This document shows, one piece after another, positions 19,396 to 50,809 of a stretch of DNA of 64,000 nucleotides. The position numbers were made by a program, and so were the translations under genes. Positions within the stretch are counted from its first letter, which is position 1. Every line of letters starts with the position of its first letter. Location: assembly GCA_030652805.1 (NCBI GenBank), contig JAUSPT010000032.1, positions 109,992-173,991 on the forward strand. The letters run 5' to 3'. The DNA comes from a bacterium (GTDB taxonomy: Bacteria; JAHJDO01). The notes below the pieces were generated by a model that saw only the letters and a list, made by a program, of their open reading frames with translations, was not told the DNA's origin and searched no databases.

Positions 19396-19415
19396 GATAT
19401 ATCCTTTCTAACTCA

Positions 19416-21314: not shown

Positions 21315-21322
21315 TCCTTTTT

Positions 21323-24699: not shown

Positions 24700-25308
24700 T
24701 CATATTTTTATAAACTCTTTGAGAAATTTTGGTCTTGCATAAAAAGCTCTTGATGTAGATCCATGACCTGCGCCTTTTGTTCTTGGCTGAATATAAACAC
24801 CCATTGCACCTGTTAATGAATCAAATCCCCGAGAAGAATCAAGCAAAGCGTCTCTAACAAGATCATAGTCTGCTTTTACTGCTTCGTACAAGCTATCGTG
24901 CAAATCAAATTCAACGATAGAATGAATATAGCTTGGATCATTTACGGTATTCCCAACTATTCTTGCGACAACAACTGCTTTTTTAAGCTTTGCCAACAAG
25001 TGACTATCCTTAAACTTTTTCTGACAAACATTGACAGGATCAATCATCGTAATAGCCATAGTCTCTTTGAATGCAAGTTTTCCACTCTTTAGATATTTCA
25101 ATGGAATTGATTTTAACTCCCAAGAACCAAAATTAGGTGATTGGGCAGAATTTATAGGCAATTCTAAAAACCGCTCAAAGACATGACCAGCCCAACCTTT
25201 ATTTACTTTCATGTTTCGATATATAGTAATTCCATATTCATTAGCTAATTCGTGAAGTTCTTTACCTACAAGTTGCTGTAATTTCTCTACGGCTTCCGTT
25301 CTTTTCAT
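24700..25308 (-). CDS. MutH/Sau3AI-fold type II restriction endonuclease-like protein
   Basis: NKGWAGHVFERFLELPINSAQSPNFGSWELKSIPL aligns by eye to E. coli MutH [36 protein letters not shown]. ExK is conserved, but the D70 position reads N. Confidence 0.75.
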   Translation of the reverse strand: MKRTEAVEKLQQLVGKELHELANEYGITIYRNMKVNKGWAGHVFERFLELPINSAQSPNFGSWELKSIPLKYLKSGKLAFKETMAITMIDPVNVCQKKFKDSHLLAKLKKAVVVARIVGNTVNDPSYIHSIVEFDLHDSLYEAVKADYDLVRDALLDSSRGFDSLTGAMGVYIQPRTKGAGHGSTSRAFYARPKFLKEFIKI

Positions 25309-25325
25309 TTTTAATTTCTCCTACA

Positions 25326-26180
25326 TTATGGCAATAAGCCGTATTCACTTTCTTTTTCTCGAACTTCATTATTTGAAGATAATGATAATTTATTGTTAAC
25401 AAGCTCGTCTTTCAACCTTGGAATAGCATACTTATCAAAATATTCCTGTTCCAAATCTATGCCAGCAAATTTGCGCTTATGTTTTAATGCTGCGACTCCA
25501 GTGGTTGCACTGCCACAAAAAGGGTCTAATATGATGTCTCCTTCATTACTTGTGGCTAATATCACTCTTTCTAATAAGGATTCTGGTTTTTGAGTTGGGT
25601 GCTTACCATATTTTTTTTCGCCATTTTTTGGTGTTCCAATCGCCCAAATACTTCTCATCTGCTTTTTGGATTTCTTAATAAAATCATTTGGGAAGCAGCC
25701 ATCTCTCATTACATCATAATTAAAAGTATGTTTTGCTTTTTTATCTTTTCTAGCCCATAACAAAGTTTCGTGACTTGCTGTAAACATTCTGCACGAAAGA
25801 TTAGGCGCAGCATTTGGTTTATACCAACAAATATCATTTACGATATGCCAACCTTGTTTTTGAAGGGCGAAACCACACGCATATATTGAATGATAAGTCC
25901 CTGAAATCCATAAAGAACCATTTGGTTTCAATACACGTTTACACGCTTTGATCCAGTTATAATGGAATTTGAAATCTTCTTCTATCCCTTGGCTTTTATC
26001 CCATTTCCCTTTGTTGACACTCACTCTTTTTCCAGCATGGCAGGTAAATCCGTCATTTGACAGGTTGTATGGCGGATCTGCAAAAATCAAATCAATGACT
26101 TTTTCTGGCAGTTGGTTGAGTGTTTTAACTACATCGCCAAGAAATAATCTGACGTTTATTTCTTTAAAATAGGCTTCCAT
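25326..26180 (-). CDS. Beta-class DNA methyltransferase (DPPY; probably N6-adenine, N4-cytosine not excluded)
   Basis: Motif IV IFADPPYNLS lies near the N-terminus. Motif I ILDPFCGSATTG lies near the C-terminus (beta-class order). Confidence 0.88.
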   Translation of the reverse strand: MEAYFKEINVRLFLGDVVKTLNQLPEKVIDLIFADPPYNLSNDGFTCHAGKRVSVNKGKWDKSQGIEEDFKFHYNWIKACKRVLKPNGSLWISGTYHSIYACGFALQKQGWHIVNDICWYKPNAAPNLSCRMFTASHETLLWARKDKKAKHTFNYDVMRDGCFPNDFIKKSKKQMRSIWAIGTPKNGEKKYGKHPTQKPESLLERVILATSNEGDIILDPFCGSATTGVAALKHKRKFAGIDLEQEYFDKYAIPRLKDELVNNKLSLSSNNEVREKESEYGLLP

Positions 26181-26311: not shown

Positions 26312-28639
26312 CTATTGCGGAGGTCTAAACTTCTGGATTCTGCTATTGATAAGTTGACGTCTATTTCCAGTATCAGTTACATAAACATATCCTTTTGAGT
26401 CAAAAGCTATGCCGGTTGGTGAATTAAATTGACCGTCACCTCCCCCACGGCTTCCCCACTTAGTTATATAATTGCCGCTTGCATCAAAGACCTGAATCAT
26501 ATTTGCAGCACTAACTACAAACATATAGCCATTATTTATAGCTATTTTTTGCGGCCGCTGCCCAAGTCTACCGAACTTTAATAGAAAATTCCCTGCACTG
26601 TCAAACTTCTGAACATTGCCTAATTTATAATCCAGAGCATACACATTTCCTGATTCATCTGCTGCTACATCCCATATATAGCTAAACTGCGAATTGCCCG
26701 CGCCGCGTTTGCCCCAGGCAGTCAAATAGTTCCCATCTTTATCAAATTTTTGTATTCTGTAATGCCGGGTGTCTGCCACATAAACATTCCCCTCTTTATC
26801 TACTGCCACACCACGGGGTTGGTCAAGTTGACCTTTGCCATGCCCCCGCTTCCCAATGCTTGCAACCAACGTCCCTTCCGGACTAAACTTATTAATGGAA
26901 TATGTGGACATATTACAAATATAAACATTGCCCTCTTTATCAATATCAATATCCATTGGTCTGCCAATATCCTTATTCTGCCAGGCTGCCAAAAGATCCC
27001 CTTTGGGACTGAGTTTAAGGACACTGCTGTTTTGCTTGCCTACTGTATCTATTACATAAATATTATCTGAATTATCAATTGTTATACCCTGAATAAAATT
27101 TATCTGCGTATTCTGGCCAATAACACTATCAAATCTAAACAGTCCTCCTATTGGAATCTTCTTGCCGACAGGCCAAATCACTTTGTCTTTATCTACCTTA
27201 GCTAATTTCTCTTGCTTTTTCTGCTCCTTCTCCTCTACTCGTTCTTTAGGCTTTGCTTTTGCCTGCATTTCTGCTCTAATAATTCCCTCCATGGCAAGAC
27301 GTTTATACTCTCTGGCTTCTATATTGTCAGGAGAAAGCTCCAGAACAGCTTCAAAATTTTCTATGGCTAATTTGTATTCACCGGAATTTTGCGCGCCTAA
27401 GTTGAAATGTATCTTTCCCCTGGTAAGACTTGACTTTATCTTCTCTTCATTTTTCTTTCTCATCTCCACCAATCGCGAATCTTCTGCTTCAAGGACCTTT
27501 TTCTTTTCCGGCTCTTCTTCTTTAGTAACGACAGGTTTCTGCGATTCTATGTCTTTAGCGATTGTTTCTTCTACTTTCTTTTCCGCTGTTTTTACTTTAT
27601 CAATAGTGGACTTTTCAACAACATGCGGAGAAGGAATGTCTTTTTTGCCGGTACTTATTGCTATGTAAATACCAATAATTATAACCACTAACAAAACTGC
27701 TGGAACAATAGCCTTGATTGGTATCTTTGTTTTCTTAACAATATCCTTTGCCATAACAGTGACTCCTGCATCTCCAGGAATAGCTACCGTTTTGCCATCA
27801 GCTGTAGCAGGCTGACGAAGAAGCCTCTTAAGGAGTTGTATAACATCATTCATATCCTGATAACGCTGATTCTTATCTTTTTTCATGCACTTTAATACCA
27901 TTTCTTCTGTTTCAAGAGATATCTTGGGATTTTTAGCGCGCGGGCTGGGAATATCCTCATGCAGGTGTTTATAAGCAGTTGCAAATGGATCCTTGCCTTT
28001 AAAAGGGAGTTCCCCGGCTAACATGCGGTATGAGAGAACTCCAAAAGCATACATATCAGATTTGGAATCAACACCCGTGCCCTTGACCTGCTCAGGGGAC
28101 ATGTATTCCGGAGTTCCTATACTCATCCCTGTTTTGGTTTTAACGCTTGAATCCTGCACTTTGGCAATACCAAAATCCATTACCTTTATACTGCCGTCCG
28201 CTGCAATCATGATATTGCCGGGCTTAACATCGCGGTGAACAACTCCATGCTTATGAGCGTAGGAAAGAGCCATTCCAACCTGCTGCAGGATTTCTAAAGT
28301 AAAATCCAATGGAAGCGCTTTCTTTCTCTTTAACAACTCATCCAGTGTCTCGCCTTCAATGTACTCCATAATAATAAAATAATTGCCTTCCAACTGTTCA
28401 GTATCATATACTTGTATAATATTACGGTGATTCAGCTTGGCCACAGATAAAGCCTCCTGCTTGAACCTTGTTACAAAATCCTTATCTGAGGCTAGATTTT
28501 GAGGCAACATCTTCATAGCTACAGGACGATTAAGAGAAATCTGAATTCCCTTATACACAATCCCCATACCGCCTTCCCCAATCTTTTCTACAATCTTATA
28601 CTTGCCTACAATCTTCCCAACTAAATCTTCTTTTGACAT
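26312..28639 (-). CDS. Ser/Thr protein kinase with TM segment, TPR-like linker and C-terminal NHL-repeat beta-propeller
   Basis: GEGGMGIVYKG, VAMK, HRDVKPGNIM, DFGIAK, GTPEYMSPEQ. TM segment AIVPAVLLVVIIIGIYIAI. Repeated NHL units (P.GVAVDKEGNVYVADT...RIQKF). Confidence 0.92.
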   Translation of the reverse strand: MSKEDLVGKIVGKYKIVEKIGEGGMGIVYKGIQISLNRPVAMKMLPQNLASDKDFVTRFKQEALSVAKLNHRNIIQVYDTEQLEGNYFIIMEYIEGETLDELLKRKKALPLDFTLEILQQVGMALSYAHKHGVVHRDVKPGNIMIAADGSIKVMDFGIAKVQDSSVKTKTGMSIGTPEYMSPEQVKGTGVDSKSDMYAFGVLSYRMLAGELPFKGKDPFATAYKHLHEDIPSPRAKNPKISLETEEMVLKCMKKDKNQRYQDMNDVIQLLKRLLRQPATADGKTVAIPGDAGVTVMAKDIVKKTKIPIKAIVPAVLLVVIIIGIYIAISTGKKDIPSPHVVEKSTIDKVKTAEKKVEETIAKDIESQKPVVTKEEEPEKKKVLEAEDSRLVEMRKKNEEKIKSSLTRGKIHFNLGAQNSGEYKLAIENFEAVLELSPDNIEAREYKRLAMEGIIRAEMQAKAKPKERVEEKEQKKQEKLAKVDKDKVIWPVGKKIPIGGLFRFDSVIGQNTQINFIQGITIDNSDNIYVIDTVGKQNSSVLKLSPKGDLLAAWQNKDIGRPMDIDIDKEGNVYICNMSTYSINKFSPEGTLVASIGKRGHGKGQLDQPRGVAVDKEGNVYVADTRHYRIQKFDKDGNYLTAWGKRGAGNSQFSYIWDVAADESGNVYALDYKLGNVQKFDSAGNFLLKFGRLGQRPQKIAINNGYMFVVSAANMIQVFDASGNYITKWGSRGGGDGQFNSPTGIAFDSKGYVYVTDTGNRRQLINSRIQKFRPPQ

Positions 28640-28645
28640 AACTAA

Positions 28646-30619
28646 TCACCTATGTTTTTTAATTTGTTTTTTGGCTTTTATGTAATACTCATCGTCAGGA
28701 GACGCAATCTCCAGTACCTGCTTCCATTTTTCTACAGCTCTATTGATATTAATATCCTTAAGAGTGTATCCTTGAATGTATAATTCCCTGGCTTTCTCCT
28801 TTATATGAACCTGAAGCTCGTTAATGTTCTCCAGCGCTTCTTTATGATCAGGCTCTACTGTTAAGACAAACTGAAATTCCAAAAGAGCTTCCTTAAATTT
28901 TTCTTCCTGAACAAAATTCTTGCCTTTCTCCATGTGCTGATGAAGTGTTTCTATTAGATAAGGCCTCACTGTTTTAATATACTGGATAGCCTCTGCATGA
29001 TAGAAATTATCTCTGTCCTGTTCCAGAGAAAGCACCTGCCTCCACTCATCAACAGCTTTCATAAGCTGCTGACTGGCGGAAAAAGACATGCCTCTGTCAA
29101 ATGCCTGAGTAACATCCTTTACTTTATCCAGAAACTCCTGCGCCTCTGTATAATCTTTGTTTATATCTAAGACCATTTGCATTAACTCAATGGCTTGAGA
29201 AGCACTTCCTTTTTGATAGAGTTTCTTTGCCTCGTCAAAAAACTTTTCCGCTTTTTGCAGATCTCCAATCTGAGCTACCAATCTTTTGGCTTCATTGGCA
29301 TATTTAGATTGTGCAGATATTTTTTCTAGTTCTACTAAGGCATTCGCATAATTCCCTTTTTCAAAAAACTCCTTCCCTTTTTCAAAGTGTCTAAGAGACA
29401 GCAGCTTATGTTCAATAAGATTAAGCTTTTCCCTTATATGAGCGTATTCAGGTTTTAAATCGAGTGCATTATTTAACTCTGTCTGCGCTTTAAGGAGTTC
29501 CTCAGCAATGATATACTCATCTGCCAGTTTAAGAGCTTTTTGAATCTGGATTTCTTTCTTGGTCTTGTTAAAGTATTCTATTCCTCTGCTATTCTCAGGA
29601 TCCAGGCTCAATACTCTTTCAAACTGGCGCAGAGCATTTTCCCATTGAGCCTTTTGATAAAGTTCAAGACCTCGTGTAAGGTAGCGAGCAATCTCTTCAT
29701 CACCTCTTGATTTTTCCACATAGATCTGCGCATCAAGATTATCCGGATCCATCTGCAAAACTTTGTTAAAAACTTCAAGCGCTTTGATTTTTTGGTCTGC
29801 TTCGTGTAATTTTTTACCCTGTTTGATGAGATTTGCAACAGTATTATCTGAGACCTCAATTATGCCCCTCTTTTCCGGAGAACGAGTTGGAATAAGACTC
29901 ATGATCAATATAATAGCCAAGATGACGCCAAACCCAATTATTCCTAACCTTATGGGTGTTTTTTTCCATGCCTCCACAAGCAGCCCCGCCTCTGAACATG
30001 ACCCCTCTGTTACAAACTTCAGAACAAATTTCCCAACTTTAATTTCATCTCCTTTAGAGAGCGCTTTTTCCTTGATCTTATTATTATTAACAAAAGTCCC
30101 ATTGCTGCTTCCAAGGTCTGCTATTTTATATTGATTATTCTCCTTCTTAACTATGGCATGTTTTCGAGATACTGTCTCATTTTTAAGAACTATTTTATTT
30201 TCTTCAGCCCTGCCAATAGTCAATTCATCTTCGTCCAACTGATACTCCTCTTTAACTCTCGCCCCTTCCATTAACATCAGTCTATATTTTGGAGACGTAT
30301 AAGACCCGGGTGCCATTCTGGTTTTTTCTCCATCGTCACTTTTTAGTTCTAAACTATATTTCCCGATCTGAACAGTATCTCCTTCATTAATGGTCTCTTT
30401 TTCTATTTGTTCCCCATTTACAAAGACTCCATTGGCAGAGTTCAAATCCTGGATAGTCACATTCTCTGCCTTAATTTCTAATTGGGCATGTTGTCTTGAA
30501 ACACTCTTATCAGGAAGAACTATGCGGTTTCCTTCCTTTCTTCCAATGAGATATACTCCGTCTTCCAAAGATAACTCTTGAACTGATTTTTCGTTTTCTT
30601 TAATGATAAAAAATTTCAT
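28646..30619 (-). CDS. Double-FHA, single-TM, multi-TPR protein
   Basis: Two FHA domains (YLIGRKEGNRIVLPDKSVSRQHAQL...SANGVFVNG and LTIGRAEENKIVLKNETVSRKHAIV..SSNGTFVNN). TM segment LGIIGFGVILAIILIMSLI. About 400 aa of TPR-like repeats. Confidence 0.88.
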   Translation of the reverse strand: MKFFIIKENEKSVQELSLEDGVYLIGRKEGNRIVLPDKSVSRQHAQLEIKAENVTIQDLNSANGVFVNGEQIEKETINEGDTVQIGKYSLELKSDDGEKTRMAPGSYTSPKYRLMLMEGARVKEEYQLDEDELTIGRAEENKIVLKNETVSRKHAIVKKENNQYKIADLGSSNGTFVNNNKIKEKALSKGDEIKVGKFVLKFVTEGSCSEAGLLVEAWKKTPIRLGIIGFGVILAIILIMSLIPTRSPEKRGIIEVSDNTVANLIKQGKKLHEADQKIKALEVFNKVLQMDPDNLDAQIYVEKSRGDEEIARYLTRGLELYQKAQWENALRQFERVLSLDPENSRGIEYFNKTKKEIQIQKALKLADEYIIAEELLKAQTELNNALDLKPEYAHIREKLNLIEHKLLSLRHFEKGKEFFEKGNYANALVELEKISAQSKYANEAKRLVAQIGDLQKAEKFFDEAKKLYQKGSASQAIELMQMVLDINKDYTEAQEFLDKVKDVTQAFDRGMSFSASQQLMKAVDEWRQVLSLEQDRDNFYHAEAIQYIKTVRPYLIETLHQHMEKGKNFVQEEKFKEALLEFQFVLTVEPDHKEALENINELQVHIKEKARELYIQGYTLKDININRAVEKWKQVLEIASPDDEYYIKAKKQIKKHR

Positions 30620-31674
30620 CTTTTTCCCTCTGCTGATCCTTTTGCTAAATGTTCCTCTACCTGCTTTAGACGTTTTAGCACTGTTTTATGCCTCTCATCC
30701 TTTCTATCAGATATCAAAGCCATACATATTTTGAGCTCTTTTTTAACCTGTTTCCAATCTTTCACACGAATATCCTTTTCAGCTTCAAATTTATGAATGC
30801 GATATTCGCTGTCCAGGTATTCCTTAGCTTCCTTTAGATTCAGGAGCGTCTGATGGAAATAATCCGGCTTTGGCTCCAGATGTCTCTGATAAGCCAGAGA
30901 CTTTTGATATGCTTCAATTGCCTTATAGGTATTCTCATAACTTATCATGCGTTCATTATAAAGAGCTTCCCCGTATTTAAAAGCCTCTTTTGCTTTATCT
31001 CTAATATTCCCAACGGGTTCACCGGTTCCTCTATCAATTTTTTCTATTATCTGTGGTTTTTTAGCACTTGTCTCCCCCTGGCTTTTTTCGGAAGACTTGT
31101 GCCCTGGCAGAAGCACATAAATTAGACCGGATATTACAGCTGCTATGAGTATAATCTTTGTGATGTTTTTTTTAGCATAAGTTGGATTCTTTATATTGGC
31201 GAGGATTTTTTCTTTAGACTTTTGAGCTTTTTGGGAGATACTGGGTTCTGCTAGTACCTTTCTGGAGACAGGGGTAGGCACAGGTTTAATAGCGAAATAC
31301 TCGGTTTTTCCATCTTGCTCAGATATTTCCTCCCCGACTATCGTTGCACTGGTCTCTCCTGATGAATTAACCTGCTCAGGGATTACTTCAAAAGCGAGAC
31401 CAACTCCTCCAACTTCAATTTTATCACGATCCTTCAACTCCTGACGCGATACTTTCCTGTCATTTACCTTTGTGCCATTCTTGCTCTCCAGGTCAACCAA
31501 TATCAGTTTTTCATCTTCTAAAACTATCTTGGCATGATGACGAGAGACCGTATCATTTCCTTCCAATACAATATTATTATCCTGCACTCTTCCAATAGTA
31601 CAGGGTTCATTATCAAACTCAAAACATTCCCCTGCTTTTAACCCGTTCCTTATAGAGACCTTATATCCTGGCAT
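30616..31674 (-). CDS. FHA-domain, single-TM protein with TPR-like C-terminus
   Basis: CTIGRVQDNNIVLEGNDTVSRHHAKI..SKNGTKVND. TM segment IILIAAVISGLIYVLL. Overlaps neighbours on both sides. Confidence 0.85.
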   Translation of the reverse strand: MPGYKVSIRNGLKAGECFEFDNEPCTIGRVQDNNIVLEGNDTVSRHHAKIVLEDEKLILVDLESKNGTKVNDRKVSRQELKDRDKIEVGGVGLAFEVIPEQVNSSGETSATIVGEEISEQDGKTEYFAIKPVPTPVSRKVLAEPSISQKAQKSKEKILANIKNPTYAKKNITKIILIAAVISGLIYVLLPGHKSSEKSQGETSAKKPQIIEKIDRGTGEPVGNIRDKAKEAFKYGEALYNERMISYENTYKAIEAYQKSLAYQRHLEPKPDYFHQTLLNLKEAKEYLDSEYRIHKFEAEKDIRVKDWKQVKKELKICMALISDRKDERHKTVLKRLKQVEEHLAKGSAEGKR

Positions 31675-32023
31675 TAACCATATCTCCTATACGAACCTGA
31701 GCGCTACTAATGGTGTCAGAGGGAAGTTCCAGCACATGCCGTACGCTTCTTCCTCCAAAAGCCAGCCGAAATGGTTTTAACTGAGATATAGTCTTTACAA
31801 CACAATAATTCTTATCCATAAAAACCACATCAATCGGGAACCTCATAAACCACGTATGTATGGCTTTGCAGTTTTTAATCAGTAATCCCTCTCCAGAATC
31901 AAGTTTAGCGCGTCCAATCAGCCCCTTAGTTCTCATTTGCCATGTATCTGCAACAACCACTCGTTGTCCTAAAATCTGATTATTACCAAAACTGATCACT
32001 ATAGTTGTCTCTCTAGAATCCAC
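31661..32023 (-). CDS. DUF192 (COG1430) family protein
   Basis: RTKGLIGR..L..GEGLLI..CKAIHTWFMRFPIDVVFMD. Confidence 0.75.
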   Translation of the reverse strand: MDSRETTIVISFGNNQILGQRVVVADTWQMRTKGLIGRAKLDSGEGLLIKNCKAIHTWFMRFPIDVVFMDKNYCVVKTISQLKPFRLAFGGRSVRHVLELPSDTISSAQVRIGDMVNARI

Positions 32024-32930
32024 CCTGCAAAAGCTTTATAATGATAGGGCCAAAAAGCATTACAAAAACTGCTGGAAAGATAAATCCTACAAGGGGCAGC
32101 AGCATTTTTACCGGCGCCTGCATTGCTGTTTTCTCTGCTATCTGCATCCTCTTGGTCCGCATCTGATCAGATAAGACCCTGAGTATAGGCCCAAGACTTG
32201 TTCCCAGTTGATCTGCCTGTATAAGCGATGTGCAAATAGCAGAAAGATCCGGCATATTAACTCTGTCTGCCATTGCTTTTAAAGCGTCGCGCCTTGTTGA
32301 CCCAAGCTTAATCTGCTGCTGCATGTGAAAAAGCTCCTCTACAAGTGGGCCTGCTTTCATCTTGTCAACCACTTTATTAATAGCTGCTGAGAAATCCAAT
32401 CCTGCCTCTACTGAAAGAGTTATCAAGTCCAGGCTGTAAGGAAGGCCTCTCCAGATCCCTTTATGCCTTTTCTTAATCTGATCCTTCAACCATTGATCAG
32501 GATAGAAATAAGCAAGCATGAACAGGATAATGTAATACCAAGCAATTTCAATAGACAGCATCTTAAGTATTAAAAGCCCGACGATTGGCGCAAGTATTAA
32601 TAGTAATTCTTTTATAGCCAAAAATTCTAGAGCGCTTATAGCTCCTGGATTTCCAGCTGAGGTTAGTTTTTGCGTGATATTATTCTGATATTCTTTAAGC
32701 CCAAACCGCTCGTGCAATTTCGCTAGTTTCCCGACCCATGGCATTAAGAAGCGATATAATGGATAGGTACGCATAAACTTTTCTCTTTTTTTCTCCAGCT
32801 GACCTAACATATCCAGATCTATCGCCTCCTCTTCCTTCTTCTCAAATAACGAGAGTATTCCTGCGCCTATAAAATAGAAAGCTGTAAAAATAAAAATATA
32901 AATTAGTGCTAAAATTATTATACTACCCAT
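32013..32930 (-). CDS. tadC: Tad pilus platform protein TadC
   Basis: T2SSF-domain membrane protein (LPYSLDLITLSVEAGLDFSAAI). Paired with the tadB-like gene downstream of the CpaF gene. Confidence 0.85.
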   Translation of the reverse strand: MGSIIILALIYIFIFTAFYFIGAGILSLFEKKEEEAIDLDMLGQLEKKREKFMRTYPLYRFLMPWVGKLAKLHERFGLKEYQNNITQKLTSAGNPGAISALEFLAIKELLLILAPIVGLLILKMLSIEIAWYYIILFMLAYFYPDQWLKDQIKKRHKGIWRGLPYSLDLITLSVEAGLDFSAAINKVVDKMKAGPLVEELFHMQQQIKLGSTRRDALKAMADRVNMPDLSAICTSLIQADQLGTSLGPILRVLSDQMRTKRMQIAEKTAMQAPVKMLLPLVGFIFPAVFVMLFGPIIIKLLQGGF

Positions 32931-32975: not shown

Positions 32976-33830
32976 CTAAACATCAATATTAACAATTTTA
33001 TAAATCAGGAATCCACCTATTAGCTCCAGGAAAACAACTGTTGCAAGAAACGCCCAGCCAATAGCAGAAGTAAACATTATCTTCATTGTTGCCGGGTCCA
33101 GAAAATACATTATTATGCCAAGTCCTATAGGAAGCAAACCTACTACCAATCCCTGCATCTTGCCCTGAGATGTGAGCGCAGCAATCTTGCCATGCATTTT
33201 ATCTCTCTCCCTTATTGTATTTGCAATTCTATCAAATATCTCAGAAAGATTACCCCCTAATTGCCTGGAGATATTAATTGAGGTGACAACCAATTCCATC
33301 TGTTCACTGGGCATTCTCTTTCCCAATCTTTTCAACGCTTCTTCCATTGAAACCCCTAACTTAGTAGACCGGATAACCAGACTAAATTCCTGAGACAAAG
33401 GAGCCTCAGATTCCTTAATTAAAAAATCCAGTGCTTGTTGCAGACTTAAACCTGCCTTAAGAGAATTTGACACCGTTGTTAAAGCCCCTGTTAATTGAGT
33501 GTCAAACTTTTTCTTGCGATTCTTCTTTAACTGTCTGAGATAAATTCTTGGCAGAGAGAATCCAACGGCTCCAAATGCTAAGCATATTAGCAAACTATGA
33601 CTGAGCAAGTAACCAACCATTGCCATAACTAGAACACCAAGAATACTAAAATAAGCAATCTTTTCTGCTGGAATAAAAACAAACATCTCATCCAGCTCTT
33701 TTTCAGTTCCTGCAGCTACTTTCTTTTCATACTGTTTAATTCCCTTCTTAAAAGTCTGATAACCTGCCTGCGCCAGTATAAACACTGCTAAAAATGTAAG
33801 CCCAAGTATTAATAGCTCAATTATCTGCAT
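32976..33830 (-). CDS. tadB: Tad pilus platform protein TadB
   Basis: T2SSF domain (LTGALTTVSNSLKAGLSLQQAL) and TM segments at both ends. Confidence 0.85.
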   Translation of the reverse strand: MQIIELLILGLTFLAVFILAQAGYQTFKKGIKQYEKKVAAGTEKELDEMFVFIPAEKIAYFSILGVLVMAMVGYLLSHSLLICLAFGAVGFSLPRIYLRQLKKNRKKKFDTQLTGALTTVSNSLKAGLSLQQALDFLIKESEAPLSQEFSLVIRSTKLGVSMEEALKRLGKRMPSEQMELVVTSINISRQLGGNLSEIFDRIANTIRERDKMHGKIAALTSQGKMQGLVVGLLPIGLGIIMYFLDPATMKIMFTSAIGWAFLATVVFLELIGGFLIYKIVNIDV

Positions 33831-35530
33831 TATTTTCCAGTCCTCTCTTCTTCAAATATCTTCATATCCAGGTGCATTCCCTTTGCTTCCAACTGAGGAA
33901 CAAAACTTGGAATATTGCCAGTAGCTACAAAAGTTCCCTGCACTTTACCATCCTGGCCAATTCCTGTTTGTTTGAAAACAAAAATATCCTGTAAAGTAAT
34001 GACTTCTCCCTCCATGCCTGTAACTTCAGTCACAGCAATAATCCTGCGGCTTCCGTCACTCAAACGAGACTCCTGAATTATTATGTTAATAGCTGAAGAT
34101 ACCTGTTCTCTGATAGCTCGGACAGGCAGATCCATACCTGACATTAAAACCATAGTTTCCAGACGCGAAAGAACATCACGAGGAGAATTGGCATGAGCAG
34201 TAGTAAGAGAGCCATCATGGCCAGTGTTCATAGCCTGAAGCATGTCCAGAGCCTCTCCACCCCTGCATTCTCCTACCACTATTCTATCAGGACGCATACG
34301 AAGAGCATTCTTTACCAGATCTCTAATAGCAATAGCTCCTTTGCCTTCAATATTTGGAGGCCGGGCTTCCAGAGAAACAACATGCTCCTGCGGTAGCTTA
34401 AGCTCTGCAGCATCCTCAATAGTTACTATTCTTTCGTCTTTAGGAATATAGGAAGACACTACATTAAGCAGTGTTGTCTTTCCTGATCCTGTTCCTCCTG
34501 ATATAATAATGTTCTTGCGTGAAAGCACACATATCTCAAGGAACTTCGCAGTATCTTTATTCAATGTTCCAAAACCTATCAAATCATCTATAGTAAAAGG
34601 AGTTTTGGAGAACTTGCGAATAGTTATACTTGGTCCTTTTAGAGCTAGAGGCGGAATGATCGCATTTACTCTGGATCCATCCTTTAATCTTGCATCTACC
34701 AGTGGCATGCTTTCATCTATTCTGCGGCCAATAGGCCCTACTATCCTCTCTATCACAGCCATAACCTGTTCATCGCTGGCAAAGGTTTTCTCGCAGAGCT
34801 GAAGCTTGCCTTTCTTTTCAATATAAATCTGATCCTTTCTGTTAACCATTATTTCTGTTACATCATCATCCTTTAACAGATCCTCCAGAGCTCCCAAACC
34901 CAGCGCTTCATCCAGCACGTCCTTTACCAAATCCTCTATATTCACCCGCTTAGGAATAGAGTCAGCCATTTCCTTAATTATGCCTCTGGTAGCTTTTTCA
35001 GTGCGGCTCCTGACTTCCTGCTCCTTTCCCTTTTCAAATGTTAAACTCTTTAAGTCAATACGCTGAATGAGCTGCTTATGAATTTTGATTCTTATATCAG
35101 AAAGCTGGCTAACCTTCCCTTTAGAAGCTGCTTTATCAGAAGGCATGGATGCAGGCGCTGGTACACGAACTTGTTTTACCTCTGTCTTTTCATCCTCATC
35201 TCTATCTTTTTTAGCTTCCTGCAACAAGCTGCCCTCAGAAATACCTGCATCTTCTAAAACCATGCTCAAGTGCCCTATTTTGACTTCTTCTCCCAGCGGC
35301 CAAAGCTCTTCCTTAGCTATTTTTTTCCCATTAAGATATGTGCCATTGCCACTGTCCAAATCTTTAATATATACCTGATTATCCTTCAGTCTGAGACTGG
35401 TATGATGTCTTGAAGCCCTTGGATCAGAAATCATCAAATCACAGTCTTTCTCCCTGCCAATGGTTACAGCTTCCCCCTCCAATTTAAAAATTCTTTCCTT
35501 ACCTGAAGCTTCTTTAATAACTATTCTCAT
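33830..35530 (-). CDS. cpaF: FHA-domain / CpaF(TadA) secretion ATPase fusion
   Basis: N-terminal FHA ([34 protein letters not shown]). A linker follows, then the CpaF core ([15 protein letters not shown] Walker [13 protein letters not shown] Walker [13 protein letters not shown] His box). Confidence 0.92.
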
Positions 35531-35533: not shown

Positions 35534-36892
35534 CTATTCTCCCTGCAGTAATTGCATAGCCTTTCCTGTTTTTTGGGCAGGAATAAAGGTCGGAGTAGTA
35601 GGAGTCACCAGAACTATAATCTGTTTCTTCTCCTTTTCTGCCTGCTTCTTGGAAAATAACAGCCCCAGTACTGGAATTTGCCCTATACCAGGAGTGTACT
35701 TTTTGAAATCTGAAGCAAGCACGTCTGTAACACCTGAAAGAATCACTGACTGGCCCGGTTTAATAACTACATCAGACTCAGAACGATAAACCTTAAGTCC
35801 TGTTCTATCCTCGACTGTAGGATCAACCTGACTGACCTCCAGATTGATATGCATAGTTACCTCTCCAAAACTGTCCACCTCCGGCTTAACCTTAAGCAAC
35901 ATTCCATACTTCTTCCATTTAACATCTGCAGAACCACTTCCTGCTACTTTATATCCAATTTCGCCTCCATGTTCAAAAACAGCTTCTCCGCCGCTTAATG
36001 CAGACTGATGCAAAGACTTCCTTATAGTAGCATTCCCCTTAGAATGAGTAAAATTTAATGCCTTGGTCAGGTTATATCCTATATTCCAGCTGGGTCCGGC
36101 TCCCCCTGTACTTGCAAGACCTGCTCCGCCAGCTAATGTGCCTCCAAGCAGATTCATTCCCATATCCTTTCCTGCTACAGCGTTTATTTCTGCAAATTGG
36201 ACATCTACTTCTATCATAACCTTTTTTACTTTTAGAAGATTGATAACGTTTTCAGCAAATGCGCCTGCTATTTTTTCAACCTCCTTGGACTCTTCTTCTC
36301 CCACTACAAAACCTCTCAGAATAACCCTGTTTCCAATAATCTTAACATTCACATTTGGGATCCCGATATTCTTTTTAATTTCCTCTGCCAGAATTTCATT
36401 ATGAATCCCAGTGCGTATCTTCACCAGATTTATTACCTCTGGGTATGCTGCAGCAACTTTTTCTACTCTTTCTTTATCAGAAGCAGTCAAAACGGATCCA
36501 TCAATAACCACTTTACCCCCGACTACCTTGACTTTTATTCCTTCTACATCGCTTAATAACTGACGAACTTCTTCAGCAAACTGCCTTGGGTCTCTTGAAA
36601 TAACATAGATAGCATGGGTAACTTTTTCCTCTTTGCTGTCCCATATAATAAGATCTGTAGTTCCAACTTTTATGCCTGTAATAATTATCTGCTCACCACC
36701 AGCAACCACCTGAACATTAGCTACTTTATCATCTCCAACTGAAACACGCGCCAACTTCTTCACATCCACTACCTGCTGCTGCCCAACAGAAACAGTAATC
36801 GCTTTCTGTCCATAGACAACGCTTCCCATAAATAGTATGCAGATCGCTGCTGTCCATACTCCGACCAATCCTGTCTTTTGCTTAGTGTTCAT
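35534..36892 (-). CDS. cpaC: Tad secretin CpaC/RcpA
   Basis: Signal peptide, pilus N-terminal domain (ITVSVGQQQVVDV...VGTTDLIIWD), BON-like repeats, secretin core (GIGQIPVLGLLFS....IIVLVTPT). Confidence 0.9.
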   Translation of the reverse strand: MNTKQKTGLVGVWTAAICILFMGSVVYGQKAITVSVGQQQVVDVKKLARVSVGDDKVANVQVVAGGEQIIITGIKVGTTDLIIWDSKEEKVTHAIYVISRDPRQFAEEVRQLLSDVEGIKVKVVGGKVVIDGSVLTASDKERVEKVAAAYPEVINLVKIRTGIHNEILAEEIKKNIGIPNVNVKIIGNRVILRGFVVGEEESKEVEKIAGAFAENVINLLKVKKVMIEVDVQFAEINAVAGKDMGMNLLGGTLAGGAGLASTGGAGPSWNIGYNLTKALNFTHSKGNATIRKSLHQSALSGGEAVFEHGGEIGYKVAGSGSADVKWKKYGMLLKVKPEVDSFGEVTMHINLEVSQVDPTVEDRTGLKVYRSESDVVIKPGQSVILSGVTDVLASDFKKYTPGIGQIPVLGLLFSKKQAEKEKKQIIVLVTPTTPTFIPAQKTGKAMQLLQGE

Positions 36893-36919: not shown

Positions 36920-37750
36920 TCAGAATTGTTCAATAGTTTTAACTCCGCCCTTAATTACTTCCACCTTGATTCTGTCCTGACGCTGGATAGTAAGTTTTTT
37001 AACCTGCTCCAGCTGCAAAATAGAACTCATTGTAATTTTCGGCATGTCTGGTATCACCTCTAAGTCTTCCGGATTGCGCAGAACAAGTGTTATTTTCCCT
37101 CTTGCTTGAGCAAAGATAATCATTTCCGCCTCCTGGAGCGTTAAAGAGAGAGTTACAGTATTATATCCTCTCCTTAGCATTGCTGCTGTAGAGTGCGTTT
37201 CCTCTACATCCACTCTTTTGCGTCCTACTTCCTGCCCTACAGCCAGAACAGTTACATTCTGAAGAAGAGTGAGAGTTGTTATCCCTGCTGCTTTTTCTCC
37301 TTCCACTGTAAAATTTGCAGCAAGATCTACATGATCATTCGGCTGGATATGTCCACCTACCCCTGTTACTTCATCTACAGAAATGGTTACTGCTCTCTCT
37401 TTCTGCCTTATGAGCGGAGATAATCCTTCCATCTTCTCCATCCCAAGACAGAGCCATGTTAACTGCTGACCTTTTTTTAGTAAAAACAACGTCTTCTGAC
37501 CTTGTATTATCTCAATATCATCAGGGTTTAATGCATTGGGATCTTTAAACTTACGAGGCACCTGCGAAATTTCTACCATTCCCTTAGAAATTTTCTCTTT
37601 TGCCTTTATATCCTTTGCTGCTACAAGAACGCTTACCAGCTCCTTTCCCTTAAAAATTGGTCTTGTAACACCTTGAATATAAAAATGCACCATGACTATC
37701 GCTAAAAGACCTAATACAACTCCCATTATTAATGAAGCTTTATTCTGCAT
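36920..37750 (-). CDS. cpaB: Flp pilus assembly protein CpaB/RcpC (SAF domain)
   Basis: N-terminal TM, then VLVAAKDIKAKEKISKGMVE (SAF). The C-terminal TLSLTLQEAEMIIFAQARGKITLVLR is typical of CpaB. Confidence 0.88.
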   Translation of the reverse strand: MQNKASLIMGVVLGLLAIVMVHFYIQGVTRPIFKGKELVSVLVAAKDIKAKEKISKGMVEISQVPRKFKDPNALNPDDIEIIQGQKTLFLLKKGQQLTWLCLGMEKMEGLSPLIRQKERAVTISVDEVTGVGGHIQPNDHVDLAANFTVEGEKAAGITTLTLLQNVTVLAVGQEVGRKRVDVEETHSTAAMLRRGYNTVTLSLTLQEAEMIIFAQARGKITLVLRNPEDLEVIPDMPKITMSSILQLEQVKKLTIQRQDRIKVEVIKGGVKTIEQF

Positions 37751-38527: not shown

Positions 38528-39463
38528 TTAGTGCACCATTAGTATCCTATCAAAACCTGTTTTGTCAAATTTTGCCTTGTAGTTTGGATCGGGAAGTATA
38601 TTGAATTTAACTTTGCTTCCGATATGCCCTTTTGTTTTATCTTTATCCTCCTTCCATAAGCTTTCTATCCATGAGAAAATAAGATCAGCACCTTTAGTAA
38701 CTTTAGGAATTTCTCCTCCAAGACTTCCTCCATATGGAACAGCCTTGGCTGTTGTATAAATAGATGGTATATTAATACCCAGAAGAGAGCCGCCTATCAG
38801 GACTGGTTGAGAACCCTTGTAAGCAAGAGAAAAGGTATAGACATCTTCTCCGCCTGTCATAAATCCCAACCAGCCACTGGCGCAAAGAAAATACTTAGCC
38901 CTGTCTACATTTAACCAGCATGGAATTAACGAGGTGAGAGAGCTCCAGCCAAAATTCCCTCCTTTTATATCATCGTAAAAGCTTTTACCGTCATCATAAA
39001 TTCCTTTTACGTCCTCTATACTGCTCATATTTACAAGACGCTCTGCCAAAGCAGTCGGCAGGGGAACAGCTGCATCAGCCTTATTAGCTCTGCCATATGT
39101 AAACACCTGAGTAATAGCAATAACAGGAACAGCATACTTCATAACATCCTGAATGGTTTGGACAATATTAGTAATAGTAAAATTCACATCTCCAGTGAAC
39201 CAGAGTTTAATGAGGTCAATAATAAATGCAGGAACCCATAGAATATTGAGCATTGCTATTACATTAAGTCCCCTTGCCTGCCATACTGCGCCTGCCATAG
39301 CAGCAGAATCAGTTGCATTCTGCATTCTGATGCGCCAGCTTACAAGCTGTCCCACGTCCACAACCAGCATTATGAACATAACCAGCACCAGAAGCATCAG
39401 CGCTGCAAAAACGGCAGCCTGCCCGCCGTTATCTTTTCTGAGCTTATGAATTTGAATAAACAT
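38528..39463 (-). CDS. TadG-like pseudopilin/anchor protein (Tad N-terminal domain)
   Basis: GGQAAVFAALMLLVLVMFIMLVVDVGQLVSWRIRMQNATDSAAMAGA. I place the start at 39463 (TAATG overlap with the upstream stop). The track ORF extends to 39505. Confidence 0.75.
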   Translation of the reverse strand: MFIQIHKLRKDNGGQAAVFAALMLLVLVMFIMLVVDVGQLVSWRIRMQNATDSAAMAGAVWQARGLNVIAMLNILWVPAFIIDLIKLWFTGDVNFTITNIVQTIQDVMKYAVPVIAITQVFTYGRANKADAAVPLPTALAERLVNMSSIEDVKGIYDDGKSFYDDIKGGNFGWSSLTSLIPCWLNVDRAKYFLCASGWLGFMTGGEDVYTFSLAYKGSQPVLIGGSLLGINIPSIYTTAKAVPYGGSLGGEIPKVTKGADLIFSWIESLWKEDKDKTKGHIGSKVKFNILPDPNYKAKFDKTGFDRILMVH

Positions 39464-39951
39464 TATAAGAGACTCGCTATTTCCCCTAACTGTTGTTTTA
39501 TCCACTTGATTATTTCATCCTTGGAGAAGCAGAACCCTAGAAAACGGCAGCTCCCCTTCACTGTAGTTCCTCCACCAAATATGGCTGATAAATAAGGTCC
39601 TGCTGGCACAGTATATGTTACATCCATCTTCGCGCTTCCTTTCGCCATCACATACGAGAGAAAACTTGCAAGGTAATTAGTTCCCGGGATAAAACTCATA
39701 TCCGGGAGCCCTGCTTCTCTTAACAAATCAAAGCTGGTATTGACATTTCCATGACCAAAGAATACAGCACCGGCTCCTCCGCCATCTCTCGTTTCCTTTA
39801 GAGCTCCTTCTCTGGCTGCTATGTAAACCTTTGATTGAGCCACCATAACCTTTCCAAAGTGAACAACAATCATCATAATGAGTATAAAAATCGGCAGGAC
39901 AATTGCTGCTTCTACTGCTGCCTGACCACTGTTAGATCTAATTAGCTTCAT
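39463..39951 (-). CDS. TadE/TadF-like minor pilin
   Basis: MKLIRSNSGQAAVEAAIVLPIFILIMMIVV (TadE N-terminal motif). The start at 39951 is 1 nt after the upstream stop. The track ORF extends to 39966. Confidence 0.78.
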   Translation of the reverse strand: MKLIRSNSGQAAVEAAIVLPIFILIMMIVVHFGKVMVAQSKVYIAAREGALKETRDGGGAGAVFFGHGNVNTSFDLLREAGLPDMSFIPGTNYLASFLSYVMAKGSAKMDVTYTVPAGPYLSAIFGGGTTVKGSCRFLGFCFSKDEIIKWIKQQLGEIASLL

Positions 39952-39952
39952 T

Positions 39953-40456
39953 CTAGTCCTCCACATTTATATTACAGCTTTGAGTAACTGGAAGATAATA
40001 TCTATCGCCATCCTGAATCCCAATTATTCTGCCAACCATGGGCATATTCAGTTTAAACTTGTATTTGACAGTAGTGGTATTACCCGATTGGCTAACTGTA
40101 GTATTAGATTGAGCATAAGAATACTGCTTAATTATTGTTGCTAGGTTCTGTGCCCAATCAGGAATGGGAATTTTTTCAAGAATTTCAGAAATTGCCGAAT
40201 CTAGAACCCCTCCCGAAGATTGACTGGAAATAGGTATCAGCGCAATGCTGGCAGCAAGTTTTGCTTTGTCCGCATCCTGATGCACAGAATATGAACGAGC
40301 TGCTGAAAAGGCAGCATAATTAGTTACTATATTGGCAGTTGCTATCAAAGCAAGCTGCATAATAGCCATGGCAAAGAGAATTAAAACAGGCATAACAATG
40401 ACAAATTCAACCATTGACTGGCCTCTGTTATTTATTCGCCTAAAGCATTTCTTCAT
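39953..40456 (-). CDS. TadE/TadF-like minor pilin
   Basis: NRGQSMVEFVIVMPVLILFAMAIMQLAL. Confidence 0.78.
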   Translation of the reverse strand: MKKCFRRINNRGQSMVEFVIVMPVLILFAMAIMQLALIATANIVTNYAAFSAARSYSVHQDADKAKLAASIALIPISSQSSGGVLDSAISEILEKIPIPDWAQNLATIIKQYSYAQSNTTVSQSGNTTTVKYKFKLNMPMVGRIIGIQDGDRYYLPVTQSCNINVED

Positions 40457-40956
40457 CTAAAAATCCATGCAATAAAGGTTCCAACACTCAGAGCCGCTCC
40501 ATAAGGAATCCTTTCACTGTTAGACAGCTTTAAAGCTTCCGTTTTTAACCCGGGCATAATAAAACTCAAAATAAGACGAAAAATATTTTTTAGCCCTCTC
40601 CAGAATGTCCCTTTCCATATCATTACCGCTATTGCCAGTATTCCGCCTGTCAGGATTCCATAAAAACAAGCATTCAAGATAAATGGATACCCTCCAACAG
40701 CTCCAACAGCAGCCATTAATTTAACGTCTCCTCCTCCTACTCCGCCAAAGACAAATACTATGGCAAAAACACAAAACCCAATAGCGAGCCCCAGCATACT
40801 GTTAACCAACCCGCCAACGCCATGATTCCAAACGTTAAGCAACAGCCCTACCGCCACAGCAGGAAAGGTTACACAATTGTATATCTTGTGTGTAATCAAG
40901 TCTGTAACCGCTGATACCAGCAAAAGCAATATTAGTAATATGTCTGAAAATGCCAT
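40453..40956 (-). CDS. cpaA: Prepilin peptidase CpaA/TadV (A24 family, no methyltransferase domain)
   Basis: 167 aa, polytopic. Two Asp contexts (SAVTDLITHKIYN and GVGGGDVKLMAAVG). Confidence 0.88.
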   Translation of the reverse strand: MAFSDILLILLLLVSAVTDLITHKIYNCVTFPAVAVGLLLNVWNHGVGGLVNSMLGLAIGFCVFAIVFVFGGVGGGDVKLMAAVGAVGGYPFILNACFYGILTGGILAIAVMIWKGTFWRGLKNIFRLILSFIMPGLKTEALKLSNSERIPYGAALSVGTFIAWIFR

Positions 40957-40964: not shown

Positions 40965-41165
40965 TTATTGCGCTGATTCTAAATCATCAGCTGCTTTTTC
41001 AACTTTTGCTGATAACTTGTCTCTAAAATACTGGAACGCAACTATAGCAGCAATGGCTATTAACACCACTATCAGAATATATTCTGTCATGCCCTGCCCT
41101 TCTTCTCCGAATATAATCCCTTTCATTAAGTTTTTAAGCTTCTTCATTTTGTCACCCCCTTTCAT
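40965..41165 (-). CDS. flp: Flp/Fap-family pilin 1
   Basis: EEG/QGMTEYILIVVLIAIAAIVAF carries the Flp processing motif G/xxxxEY. The real start is probably the internal MKKLKNL. Confidence 0.85.
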   Translation of the reverse strand: MKGGDKMKKLKNLMKGIIFGEEGQGMTEYILIVVLIAIAAIVAFQYFRDKLSAKVEKAADDLESAQ

Positions 41166-41169: not shown

Positions 41170-41349
41170 TTATGGAATAGGTAAACTAATAAGACTTGCG
41201 ATTCTATTGTAATAAGTTTTTAGCGCCTTACGAAACATCTCAAAACAACCTGCCAGACAAAGAACAGCTATTACTGTTACAAGAACATACTCTGTCATCG
41301 CTTGCCCTTTTTCGTCCAGCAACAAGTTTTTTAAACTCTGTACAAACAT
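41170..41349 (-). CDS. flp: Flp/Fap-family pilin 2 (59 aa, below the ORF-track length cut-off)
   Basis: Own translation: MFVQSLKNLLLDEKGQAMTEYVLVTVIAVLCLAGCFEMFRKALKTYYNRIASLISLPIP. It has the same G/Q[GA]MTEY motif as pilin 1. ATG at 41349 and stop at 41170-41172. Confidence 0.8.
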   Translation of the reverse strand: MFVQSLKNLLLDEKGQAMTEYVLVTVIAVLCLAGCFEMFRKALKTYYNRIASLISLPIP

Positions 41350-41355: not shown

Positions 41356-42147
41356 CTACCTATAAGCTTCTACCAAAACAACTGTAATGTTATCAACTCC
41401 TCCAGCTTTATTAGCATAGTCTATCATTTCTTCTGCTGCTTTTGAAAGGTTATCTATATGTTTTTTTATAATATCCTCCATTGTCTTTCTTTCCAGCATA
41501 CCGCTCAGCCCATCGGAACATATGAGAAAAATATCTACAGGAACAATATCCTCTTCCTGTAGATCAACCTTGACCTCTTTCTCACTACCCAGAGCCCGTG
41601 TAATAACATTCTTCCAGCGATGCTGTTTGGCTTCCTCTTTCGTTATTACATTCTCTTTAAGTTGCTCATTAACCCATGAATGATCCTCTGTAATCTGCTT
41701 CAGCCTTCCATTTCTCATTAAATACACCCTGCTGTCGCCTACATGCACAACATACCCTTTCGCCTCAGCAATGGATAACCCTGCTATAGTTGTTCCCATT
41801 CCTTTAAGTTCAGGGTTAGAAAATGACATCTCATATATTTTCTTATTAGCAATTCGTACTGCGGTAAGGAGCTTATTAGCCTCAGGCGCTAGTTCTGGGT
41901 TCATCTCAAATGGCCAGGTAATATCATTGTCTTTGGCTGTGCGTTCAATAAAGGCCTTTATTAATTCGATAGATTTGCGACTTGCTACATCACCTGCTGC
42001 ATGCCCACCCATGCCATCAGCTACAAGATAAAGCTTCAGATCATCACTGACCAGAAAGCTATCTTCATTTAGCTTGCGCACTCTGCCTAAATCTGATAAG
42101 CCGTATGCTCTGAACTTCATCTCTAATTTTACTCCTGTAACTGCCAT
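41356..42147 (-). CDS. PP2C-family Ser/Thr phosphatase
   Basis: GRVRKLNEDSF, VADGMGGHAAG, GTT, LICSDGL, GGVDNITVVLV. Confidence 0.92.
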   Translation of the reverse strand: MAVTGVKLEMKFRAYGLSDLGRVRKLNEDSFLVSDDLKLYLVADGMGGHAAGDVASRKSIELIKAFIERTAKDNDITWPFEMNPELAPEANKLLTAVRIANKKIYEMSFSNPELKGMGTTIAGLSIAEAKGYVVHVGDSRVYLMRNGRLKQITEDHSWVNEQLKENVITKEEAKQHRWKNVITRALGSEKEVKVDLQEEDIVPVDIFLICSDGLSGMLERKTMEDIIKKHIDNLSKAAEEMIDYANKAGGVDNITVVLVEAYR

Positions 42148-50619: not shown

Positions 50620-50755
50620 CTTTTTTTGCGTTCAAGTCTGTTTTTTCTATGTAAAGATTATCAAGCGGGCTTTTGACCCCAAACTGATATAATAAGCATA
50701 ACTACACAAAGTGGCAAAATCAAGCCTAAAACTCGTATTTTCGCACAAAAATCCT

Positions 50756-50809
50756 TTGACACATATAAAATTATTCGCTATCTTGAACACAATAAAGGTA
50801 ACTGTTCAA
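50756..50809 (+). promoter_or_regulatory. Candidate sigma70-type promoter plus inverted-repeat operator upstream of hcp
   Basis: TTGACA (50756-61), 17 nt, TATCTT (50779-84). IR TTGAACA-N13-TGTTCAA (50783-50809) overlaps the -10 element and downstream sequence. Confidence 0.35.

Follow-up and report, generated by a model that had tools for sequence, protein, structure and literature searches.

An FHA-fused CpaF motor in a TadZ-less, Kil-like Tad pilus locus with its own kinase and phosphatase genes

The window analysed here, a 64-kb (64,000-nucleotide) stretch of a 184-kb contig of a metagenome-assembled bacterial genome, encodes a hexameric ATPase that carries an FHA domain at its N-terminus and serves as the only motor of a Tad (type IVc) pilus machine. 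The protein is a class III CpaF/TadA, built from the FHA domain, a disordered tether of ~40 amino acids, a three-helix bundle, an N-terminal domain, and an ATPase domain. Its FHA domain is predicted to be a phosphothreonine reader with an intact pocket, and the surrounding locus probably encodes a TadZ-less, Kil-type Tad system whose class III motor is gated by a kinase, FHA domains, and a PP2C phosphatase. Phospho-dependent recruitment or activation of the motor, as read from the genes, is plausible. The architecture of the motor is not new: although an earlier note on this DNA implied novelty, FHA-CpaF proteins have already been published as class III CpaF (PMC12019362) and as KilF (PMC8460266). 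What the locus adds is its compact arrangement, the pattern of FHA versus TadZ among Tad loci, and a set of candidate acceptor threonines.

The FHA-CpaF motor

The motor gene is an uninterrupted open reading frame, its ATG lying 3 nt past the stop codon of the secretin gene and its own stop codon overlapping the start of tadB, and the encoded protein is identical to NCBI MDO9464297.1. Pfam assigns residues 22-79 to the FHA domain (PF00498; E 2.7e-18, 66.6 bits against a curated cut-off of 20.7) and residues 211-486 to T2SSE (PF00437; E 2.9e-62), and no transmembrane segment is detected in the motor by a hydropathy scan. Against the PDB, phmmer matches residues 3-92 to FHA domains (GarA, OdhI, Rv1747, and FhaA; E 1e-8 to 1e-5) and residues 150-543 to the cryo-EM chains 9e24/8rkd of C. 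crescentus CpaF (E ~3e-122; 2.8e-122 for 9e24). An AlphaFold2 model built on 58 homologues renders residues 1-96 as a confident beta-sandwich (pLDDT 88-94), which Foldseek superposes on the FHA domains of GarA, OdhI, and FhaA, reaching a TM-score of 0.88 and a root-mean-square deviation of 1.4 A with GarA 6i2r_B, while the remainder of the model matches CpaF chain 9e24_A (E 7.6e-38, 48% identity). Helices are modelled from residue 133 on, the three-helix bundle comprising residues ~137-210, and the catalytic motifs (the Walker A, Asp box, Walker B, and His box set, including GHDGSLTT) fall in columns that are invariant across the 58 homologues.

The FHA profile match, the complete pocket, and the GarA-like fold bear out the description, made in the earlier note, of a Tad motor ATPase with an N-terminal FHA domain, and the FHA residue pattern quoted there is found literally in the motor sequence. 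The low-complexity linker of ~100 amino acids that was placed behind the domain is shorter than described, the disordered part covering only ~40 amino acids (97-136) and the remaining gap being the CpaF three-helix bundle. In the alignment of the 58 homologues, the phosphopeptide pocket of the motor is complete, with G25-R26, S40-R41-x-H43, and N62-G63-T64. Since these residues are present and the FHA profile matches, neither of the two grounds that the note had named for abandoning the claim, a failed FHA profile search or the lack of the Arg/Ser/His/Asn binding residues, applies to this protein.

A survey of domain architectures, which had been proposed alongside the claim, finds FHA together with T2SSE in 118 of the 120 best clusters of a large protein collection. 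Deltaproteobacteria, Myxococcaceae, Archangium, Lentisphaerae, Kiritimatiellia, Planctomycetota, Schekmanbacteria, and Aureabacteria are among the source names, and the same FHA-CpaF protein is encoded in the independent assemblies L081-L085. The chance that a separate small FHA gene has been joined to cpaF by a frameshift, a mis-assembly, or a wrongly assigned start is therefore negligible, because the fusion recurs across these clusters and assemblies as well as in published cultured organisms (PMC12019362, PMC8460266); within the window itself, such an artefact is ruled out by the continuous reading frame that starts directly behind the upstream stop codon. No observation in its favour was found, the metagenomic origin of the contig being the sole ground for considering it.

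FHA domains and TadZ across Tad loci

Distribution of the FHA fusion was compared with that of TadZ in 80 tad loci from species-representative genomes, 25 with an FHA-fused CpaF and 55 FHA-less, with TadZ/CpaE being sought by phmmer with five seed sequences and then with a hidden Markov model made from 39 TadZ proteins. A TadZ/CpaE-type ParA-like gene is present in 54 of the 55 FHA-less loci, either as a separate gene (~410 amino acids) or fused as TadZ-TadA. By the same searches, none of the 25 FHA-CpaF loci and none of the extra contigs L081-L088 has a TadZ at the motor, and no TadZ-like open reading frame is detected in the 64-kb window. Three FHA-CpaF loci (L011, L013, and L022) contain weak ParA/receiver-like matches (E 1e-12 to 1e-14), which lie several kb from the motor. 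The motor gene in FHA-CpaF loci is instead abutted directly by a secretin or CpaB gene. Where enough flanking sequence is available, 6 of 18 FHA-CpaF loci have a kinase gene at a distance of no more than 10 kb, as compared to none of 44 FHA-less ones, and extra FHA proteins are encoded in 7 of 18 and 1 of 44, respectively. A kinase or phosphatase gene as a universal neighbour of FHA-CpaF is rejected by these counts (6/18 for kinases, 1/18 for phosphatases).

In a neighbour-joining tree of the ATPase core, calculated without bootstrap, the FHA-CpaFs group together and apart from both the TadZ-fused and the TadZ-separate proteins, and many independent origins of the FHA fusion are rejected in view of this single grouping. 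Because the FHA-CpaFs form one lineage, their exclusivity with TadZ amounts to approximately one ancient evolutionary event. No paper stating this exclusivity was found in the literature searched. The sampled class spans Myxococcota, Lentisphaeria, Planctomycetia, Spirochaetaceae, and Gamma- and Betaproteobacteria, and FHA-transmembrane and double-FHA-transmembrane proteins are encoded after TadBC in distant phyla as well (L004, L005, L023, L028, L029, L088). The tethers of the more distant FHA-CpaFs measure 18 to 220 amino acids and are rich in Pro, Ala, and Glu; no motif is shared among them, and a phospho-acceptor conserved in the tether across the whole family is rejected on these grounds.

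Several further features of the two motor types were observed in the sampled proteins. TadZ-TadA fusions (~700-810 amino acids) extend beyond Bdellovibrio to Oligoflexia, Omnitrophota, Elusimicrobiales, WOR-3, and unclassified metagenome-assembled genomes (L003, L015, L016, L019, L020, L026, L045, L047, L053, L064, L067). The TadZ-TadA system of one Oligoflexia locus (L020) has FHA proteins and a PP2C phosphatase next to it. The CpaF of Acidithiobacillus ferrianus (L032, 9929-11647) has a 150-aa N-terminal extension without a detectable FHA profile, in a locus without TadZ, and a weak FHA signal remains in its sister A. sulfurivorans (L035); the extension in A. ferrianus looks like a decaying FHA domain. 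The phosphate-contacting serine S40 is replaced by Glu or Asp in 12 of the 58 homologues, a change that could act as a built-in phosphomimic or mean that these members no longer bind phosphothreonine. Seven FHA-CpaFs with long acidic and otherwise hypervariable tethers (P0064, P0091, P0094, P0097, P0099, P0117, and P0119, two of them with Myxococcaceae or Archangium source names) share the stretch [TS]RMPAS[LM]xxALAKK just before the three-helix bundle, possibly a short linear interaction motif.

Kinase, phosphatase, and candidate acceptor threonines

The motor gene is part of a block of 17 co-directional genes that runs from 42147 down to 26312 on the reverse strand with short gaps or overlaps (Table 1), beginning with a PP2C phosphatase and ending with a Hanks-type kinase. 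This order is kept in the contigs of close relatives (CpaF 89-96% identical), with differing inserts, and a kinase and a phosphatase bracket the operon likewise in the close relatives L081 and L084 and in the distant locus L029. The block is an uncommonly complete, all-in-one Tad locus of compact form, with its own kinase and phosphatase genes and, judged by sequence, an active-looking Hanks kinase/PP2C/FHA module. The phosphatase retains the DGxGG motif; the kinase (Pkinase match, E 5.9e-59) retains VAMK, HRD, DFG, and a Thr-rich activation loop; and the canonical pocket residues are kept in all four FHA domains of the locus. A hydropathy scan detects exactly one transmembrane segment each in the 352-aa FHA protein, the 657-aa double-FHA protein, and the kinase, and because of these single segments the FHA and kinase domains are predicted to be cytoplasmic and the TPR-like and NHL domains extracytoplasmic. 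The three additional FHA domains had been assigned to membrane-anchored TPR scaffolds, which holds for the membrane anchors of both proteins but for TPR only in the 657-aa protein, the only one of the two with Pfam TPR matches. Because kinase and phosphatase sit in the same operon, the locus favours phospho-control more than the earlier note had stated.

The short motif [DE][GE]E?[KR]T is present in single copy in four linkers, namely the motor tether (T116), the linker of the FHA-transmembrane protein (T124), the inter-FHA linker of the double-FHA protein (T100), and the juxtamembrane segment of the kinase (T284), and these threonines are candidate FHA ligands. Four of the five interdomain linkers thus carry it, with 4 occurrences in 196 linker residues as against 4 in the 14,595 residues of other proteins of the window (a background of 2.7e-4 per residue), and none of 20,000 composition-preserving shuffles reaches the linker count. 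In homologues at 87-96% identity, the residues EKTEV around T116 are invariant while the flanking linker accumulates indels and substitutions, and the motif sites are conserved in L081 and L083 although the linkers vary otherwise. The motif was defined after the sequences had been seen and is absent from distant loci, and for these reasons it is treated as a lineage-specific hypothesis.

The position of T116 within the motor raises the alternative of an intramolecular switch, in which the FHA domain would bind phospho-T116 of its own tether in the manner of GarA or OdhI, so that the motor would be switched from auto-inhibited to active and back without any recruitment. The motor FHA domain is most similar to those of these two proteins, the EKTEV stretch is invariant as described, and trimming of the N-terminal disordered region of C. 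crescentus CpaF tends to raise ATPase activity in vitro (PMC12019362), all of which would fit such a switch. Only ~20 residues separate the FHA domain from T116, however, the distant tethers conserve neither a threonine nor a motif, and the presence of the same motif on three other proteins favours binding between proteins; a purely intramolecular switch is accordingly regarded as very unlikely.

In the preferred mechanism of kinase-gated recruitment, an envelope or contact cue would be sensed by the kinase via its NHL propeller, upon which the kinase would phosphorylate its own threonines, those in the linkers of the membrane-anchored FHA proteins, or both. The FHA domains, the motor-tethered one included, would bind the resulting phosphothreonines and concentrate the soluble hexameric ATPase at the TadB/TadC platform, switching pilus assembly on, and the PP2C phosphatase would reset the system. 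The FHA/phosphothreonine module would in this way take over the recruitment job that the ParA-like TadZ/CpaE performs in classical Tad systems. Domain identities, pocket, gene content and order, the absence of TadZ, and membership of the lineage are read directly from the sequences and models, from which we infer phosphorylation, its ligands, and recruitment. A bolder extension, tentative and somewhat doubtful, is that a multivalent phosphothreonine/FHA network replaced TadZ as the spatial determinant in the FHA-CpaF lineage, so that assembly would take place wherever the transmembrane kinase fires, for example upon envelope contact, rather than at a fixed pole; in the particular family described here, with readers and a shared acceptor motif distributed over the motor, two scaffolds, and the kinase, a single kinase might nucleate a self-assembling cluster that captures the motor.

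Several observations weigh against phospho-controlled recruitment. No kinase gene is found within 10 kb in 12 of the 18 sampled FHA-CpaF loci, nor in L086-L088, and the D-G-K-T motif, chosen post hoc, is met with in close relatives only. The exclusivity of FHA and TadZ counts as roughly one event and not as many independent observations, and TadZ could be encoded outside the sampled flanks. Reliance on phosphothreonine is furthermore not uniform in the family, with R26, S40, or N62 substituted in 10 to 16 of the 58 homologues (S40 by E, D, or A in 14, R26 in 10). As some homologues have lost pocket residues, phospho-independent use of the FHA domain has to be taken seriously as an alternative at the level of the family. 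The domain would then be a plain interaction or ring-forming module that docks the motor on the membrane FHA/TPR scaffolds, as suggested by analogy with the FHA-like cytoplasmic domains of SctD/YscD/PrgH in type III secretion systems, and the kinase and phosphatase would act elsewhere. The Yop-YscD_cpl profile, which also matches the motor FHA region (E 9.3e-17), points in this direction, as do the pocket substitutions and the majority of FHA-CpaF loci without a nearby kinase. The nearest solved folds, however, are those of GarA, OdhI, and FhaA, true phosphothreonine binders, every canonical pocket residue is kept in the four FHA domains of the locus, and kinase and phosphatase genes bracket the same operon here, in two close relatives, and in a distant locus. 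On this evidence a phospho-independent adaptor is considered unlikely. The proposal of a phosphothreonine reader that couples the motor to Ser/Thr phosphorylation is partly supported: it fits the intact pocket, the phosphatase, the kinase, and the lack of TadZ at this locus, and is weakened for the wider family by pocket loss and missing kinases.

Table 1. Genes, domains, and candidate sites of the Tad block, the motor first and then the other genes in the order of the block
Feature	Position	Strand	Basis and remarks
FHA-CpaF/TadA motor ATPase, 566 aa, class III CpaF architecture	33830-35530	-	Open reading frame, Pfam, PDB matches
Motor: FHA domain, residues 1-96	35243-35530	-	Pfam, AlphaFold2 pLDDT 88-94, Foldseek
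Motor: disordered linker, residues 97-136	35123-35242	-	pLDDT ~30
Motor: T116 (in linker)	35183-35185	-	Motif
Motor: three-helix bundle, N-terminal domain, and C-terminal ATPase domain, residues 137-566	33833-35122	-	PDB match, invariant columns, model
Motor: Walker motif	34472-34498	-	
PP2C Ser/Thr phosphatase (Stp1/IreP family), first gene of the block	41356-42147	-	Pfam PP2C; NCBIfam NF033484, 257.8 bits against a cut-off of 230
Flp-type pilin candidate 1, 59 aa, G/QAMTEY motif	41170-41349	-	Weak Pfam Flp_Fap match, E 0.042
Flp-type pilin candidate 2, 66 aa, G/QGMTEY motif	40965-41165	-	Pfam Flp_Fap, E 1.8e-4, under gathering score
Prepilin peptidase (Peptidase_A24; CpaA/TadV/KilA-like)	40453-40956	-	Pfam
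TadE-like minor pilin 1	39953-40456	-	Pfam
TadE-like minor pilin 2	39463-39966	-	Pfam
TadG-like minor pilin	38528-39505	-	Pfam
252-aa protein, N-terminal hydrophobic segment	37769-38527	-	Between TadG-like gene and CpaB; kept in L081, L083, L084
RcpC/CpaB	36920-37750	-	Pfam
Short secretin, KilC-like, directly upstream of motor	35534-36892	-	pil_N PF13629, BON PF04972, Secretin PF00263
Platform protein TadB (T2SSF)	32976-33830	-	Pfam; start overlaps motor stop codon
Platform protein TadC (T2SSF)	32013-32930	-	Pfam
DUF192 protein	31661-32023	-	Pfam; common neighbour of TadBC in related loci
352-aa FHA-transmembrane protein; transmembrane segment 169-193, helical C-terminal domain of no assigned family	30616-31674	-	Pfam, hydropathy
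FHA-transmembrane protein: T124 (EQDGKTEYF)	31303-31305	-	Motif
657-aa KilD-like protein; two FHA domains, transmembrane segment 220-248, TPR	28646-30619	-	Pfam, hydropathy
KilD-like protein: T100 (DDGEKTRMA)	30320-30322	-	Motif
Hanks-type Ser/Thr kinase, 775 aa; kinase domain 14-261, transmembrane segment 303-333, predicted periplasmic NHL beta-propeller	26312-28639	-	Pfam, hydropathy
Kinase: T284 (ADGKTVAIP)	27788-27790	-	Motif

Both pilin candidates share a G/xxxxEY motif, with Pfam support under the gathering score in each case. The 252-aa protein has no Pfam or NCBIfam match, and the short secretin no Pfam match to Secretin_N. The top sigma70-like site of the region lies at 42185-42156, in the 51-nt gap upstream of the phosphatase gene; as promoter and terminator counts in the region are no higher than in shuffled sequence, only the position of this site is suggestive, which makes it weak evidence. 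In the relative L081, an extra unannotated 875-aa protein is encoded between RcpC and the secretin (2631-5258). The inserts in the Tad operons of relatives (L081 6776-8870 and 12721-14765; L083 9621-15328) are restriction-modification or toxin-antitoxin-like, comprising a DUF4160/DUF2442 pair, a methyltransferase, an NTP_transf_2 pair, ORF6N, and a DUF1016/methylase/helicase set, and in the window a DNA methylase and a MutH/MvaI-like nuclease follow directly after the kinase gene (24700-26180). Mobile cassettes of a defence type seem to be tolerated in the Tad operon or drawn to it.

Elsewhere in the window, the Tad locus has a distinct neighbour on the reverse strand (10667-22742), another cluster of the type II secretion / type IVa-pilus-like kind, with genes for a PilM-PilN fusion, T2SSK, T2SSJ, pseudopilins, a GspG-like protein, GspF, GspE with MshEN, GspD with Secretin_N, and an AAA_22 ATPase. 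The stretch 50001-54400, with a GC content of 0.46-0.49 compared to ~0.38 elsewhere, contains a hydroxylamine reductase/prismane gene (50859-52502) and an amine-oxidase-like flavoprotein gene (52778-54367) and is possibly of foreign origin. The HisD of the window has relatives at 81-90% identity, the next matches standing at ~55% (Clostridia, Nitrospirota). Rfam and tRNA scans of the whole 64-kb window returned no matches.

Comparison with known systems

Class III CpaF has been defined as FHA-IDR-3HB-NTD-CAD (FHA domain, disordered region, three-helix bundle, N-terminal domain, and C-terminal ATPase domain) and described as "mostly found in betaproteobacteria", with Achromobacter xylosoxidans E3HIW0 as an example (Nat Commun 2025, PMC12019362). 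The motor described here has the same domain order, a disordered tether before the three-helix bundle, and a core 48% identical to the solved C. crescentus CpaF. It differs in that the class as sampled here is broader than the mostly betaproteobacterial one reported and goes together with the absence of TadZ, while the published class comes without locus context. The role of the N-terminal extensions of CpaF was left undetermined in the same cryo-EM paper (PMC12019362), and no experiment on the FHA domain of any CpaF was found in the literature searched.

The classical Tad systems of C. crescentus and A. actinomycetemcomitans, in which TadZ is the usual localiser, and the TadZ-TadA system of Bdellovibrio (bioRxiv 10.64898/2026.07.08.737194) share the same core machine. 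In these systems, too, a partner is attached to the motor or encoded just before it, between the secretin and TadB, but this N-terminal partner is a ParA-like ATPase, separate or fused, and not an FHA domain. The ParA-like and the FHA solution never occur together at the motor in the 80 sampled loci. A parallel for the regulatory module is the threonine phosphorylation pathway of the P. aeruginosa H1 type VI secretion system, which comprises the kinase PpkA, the PP2C phosphatase PppA, and Fha1, as far as it is cited in PMC8460266. In both cases the genes of a nanomachine, for secretion there and for a pilus here, are accompanied by those for a transmembrane Hanks kinase, a PP2C phosphatase, and FHA proteins, and by analogy a post-translational, signal-gated assembly would be expected. 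The machine is a different one, its FHA protein, going by that citation, is a separate scaffold rather than a part of the ATPase, the sensor here is an NHL propeller, and the module described here is known from its genes.

Among the closest known systems is also the Kil system of M. xanthus, which consists of KilF (an FHA-ATPase), KilC, KilA, KilD, and MXAN_4648/4649 (Seef et al., eLife 2021, PMC8460266; Nat Commun 2025, PMC12075869); its FHA proteins are over-represented, its secretin is short and lacks N0, and it has only one ATPase (PMC8460266), KilD being listed in a supplementary table as FHA + TPR and MXAN_4648/4649 as FHA proteins (PMC8460266). The locus described here likewise combines a single FHA-fused ATPase, a short secretin (pil_N, BON, and secretin, no N0), FHA-TPR and FHA-only accessories, and the lack of TadZ. 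The ATPase core of the motor is 64% identical to a Myxococcaceae KilF-like protein, the secretin is 29% identical over its full length to the KilC-like protein of Citreicoccus (L012), and the double-FHA protein is collinear with the KilD-like protein of the same organism (E 2e-21). In contrast to the Kil genes, which lie in two clusters with no dedicated kinase/phosphatase pair listed, the genes here form a single block bracketed by PP2C and kinase, and KilD, described as cytoplasmic, has homologues both here and in L012 with a predicted transmembrane segment. Because the genes lie in a single co-directional block and not in two clusters, the system is called Kil-like rather than a Kil system; contact-dependent killing and co-operation with a needleless type III secretion system are features of M. 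xanthus, and Kil-like is to be read here as a description of gene content. KilF and KilD cluster at prey contact sites, where FHA proteins have been proposed to signal (PMC8460266, PMC12075869), and the spatial cue for these clusters is stated to be unknown (PMC12075869; bioRxiv 10.64898/2026.07.08.737194). The locus bears on where and when Tad/Kil machines assemble, and the two leads it offers, the exclusivity of FHA and TadZ and the threonines T116, T124, T100, and T284 as candidate ligands, can be taken up in the kilF and kilD genes of Myxococcus.

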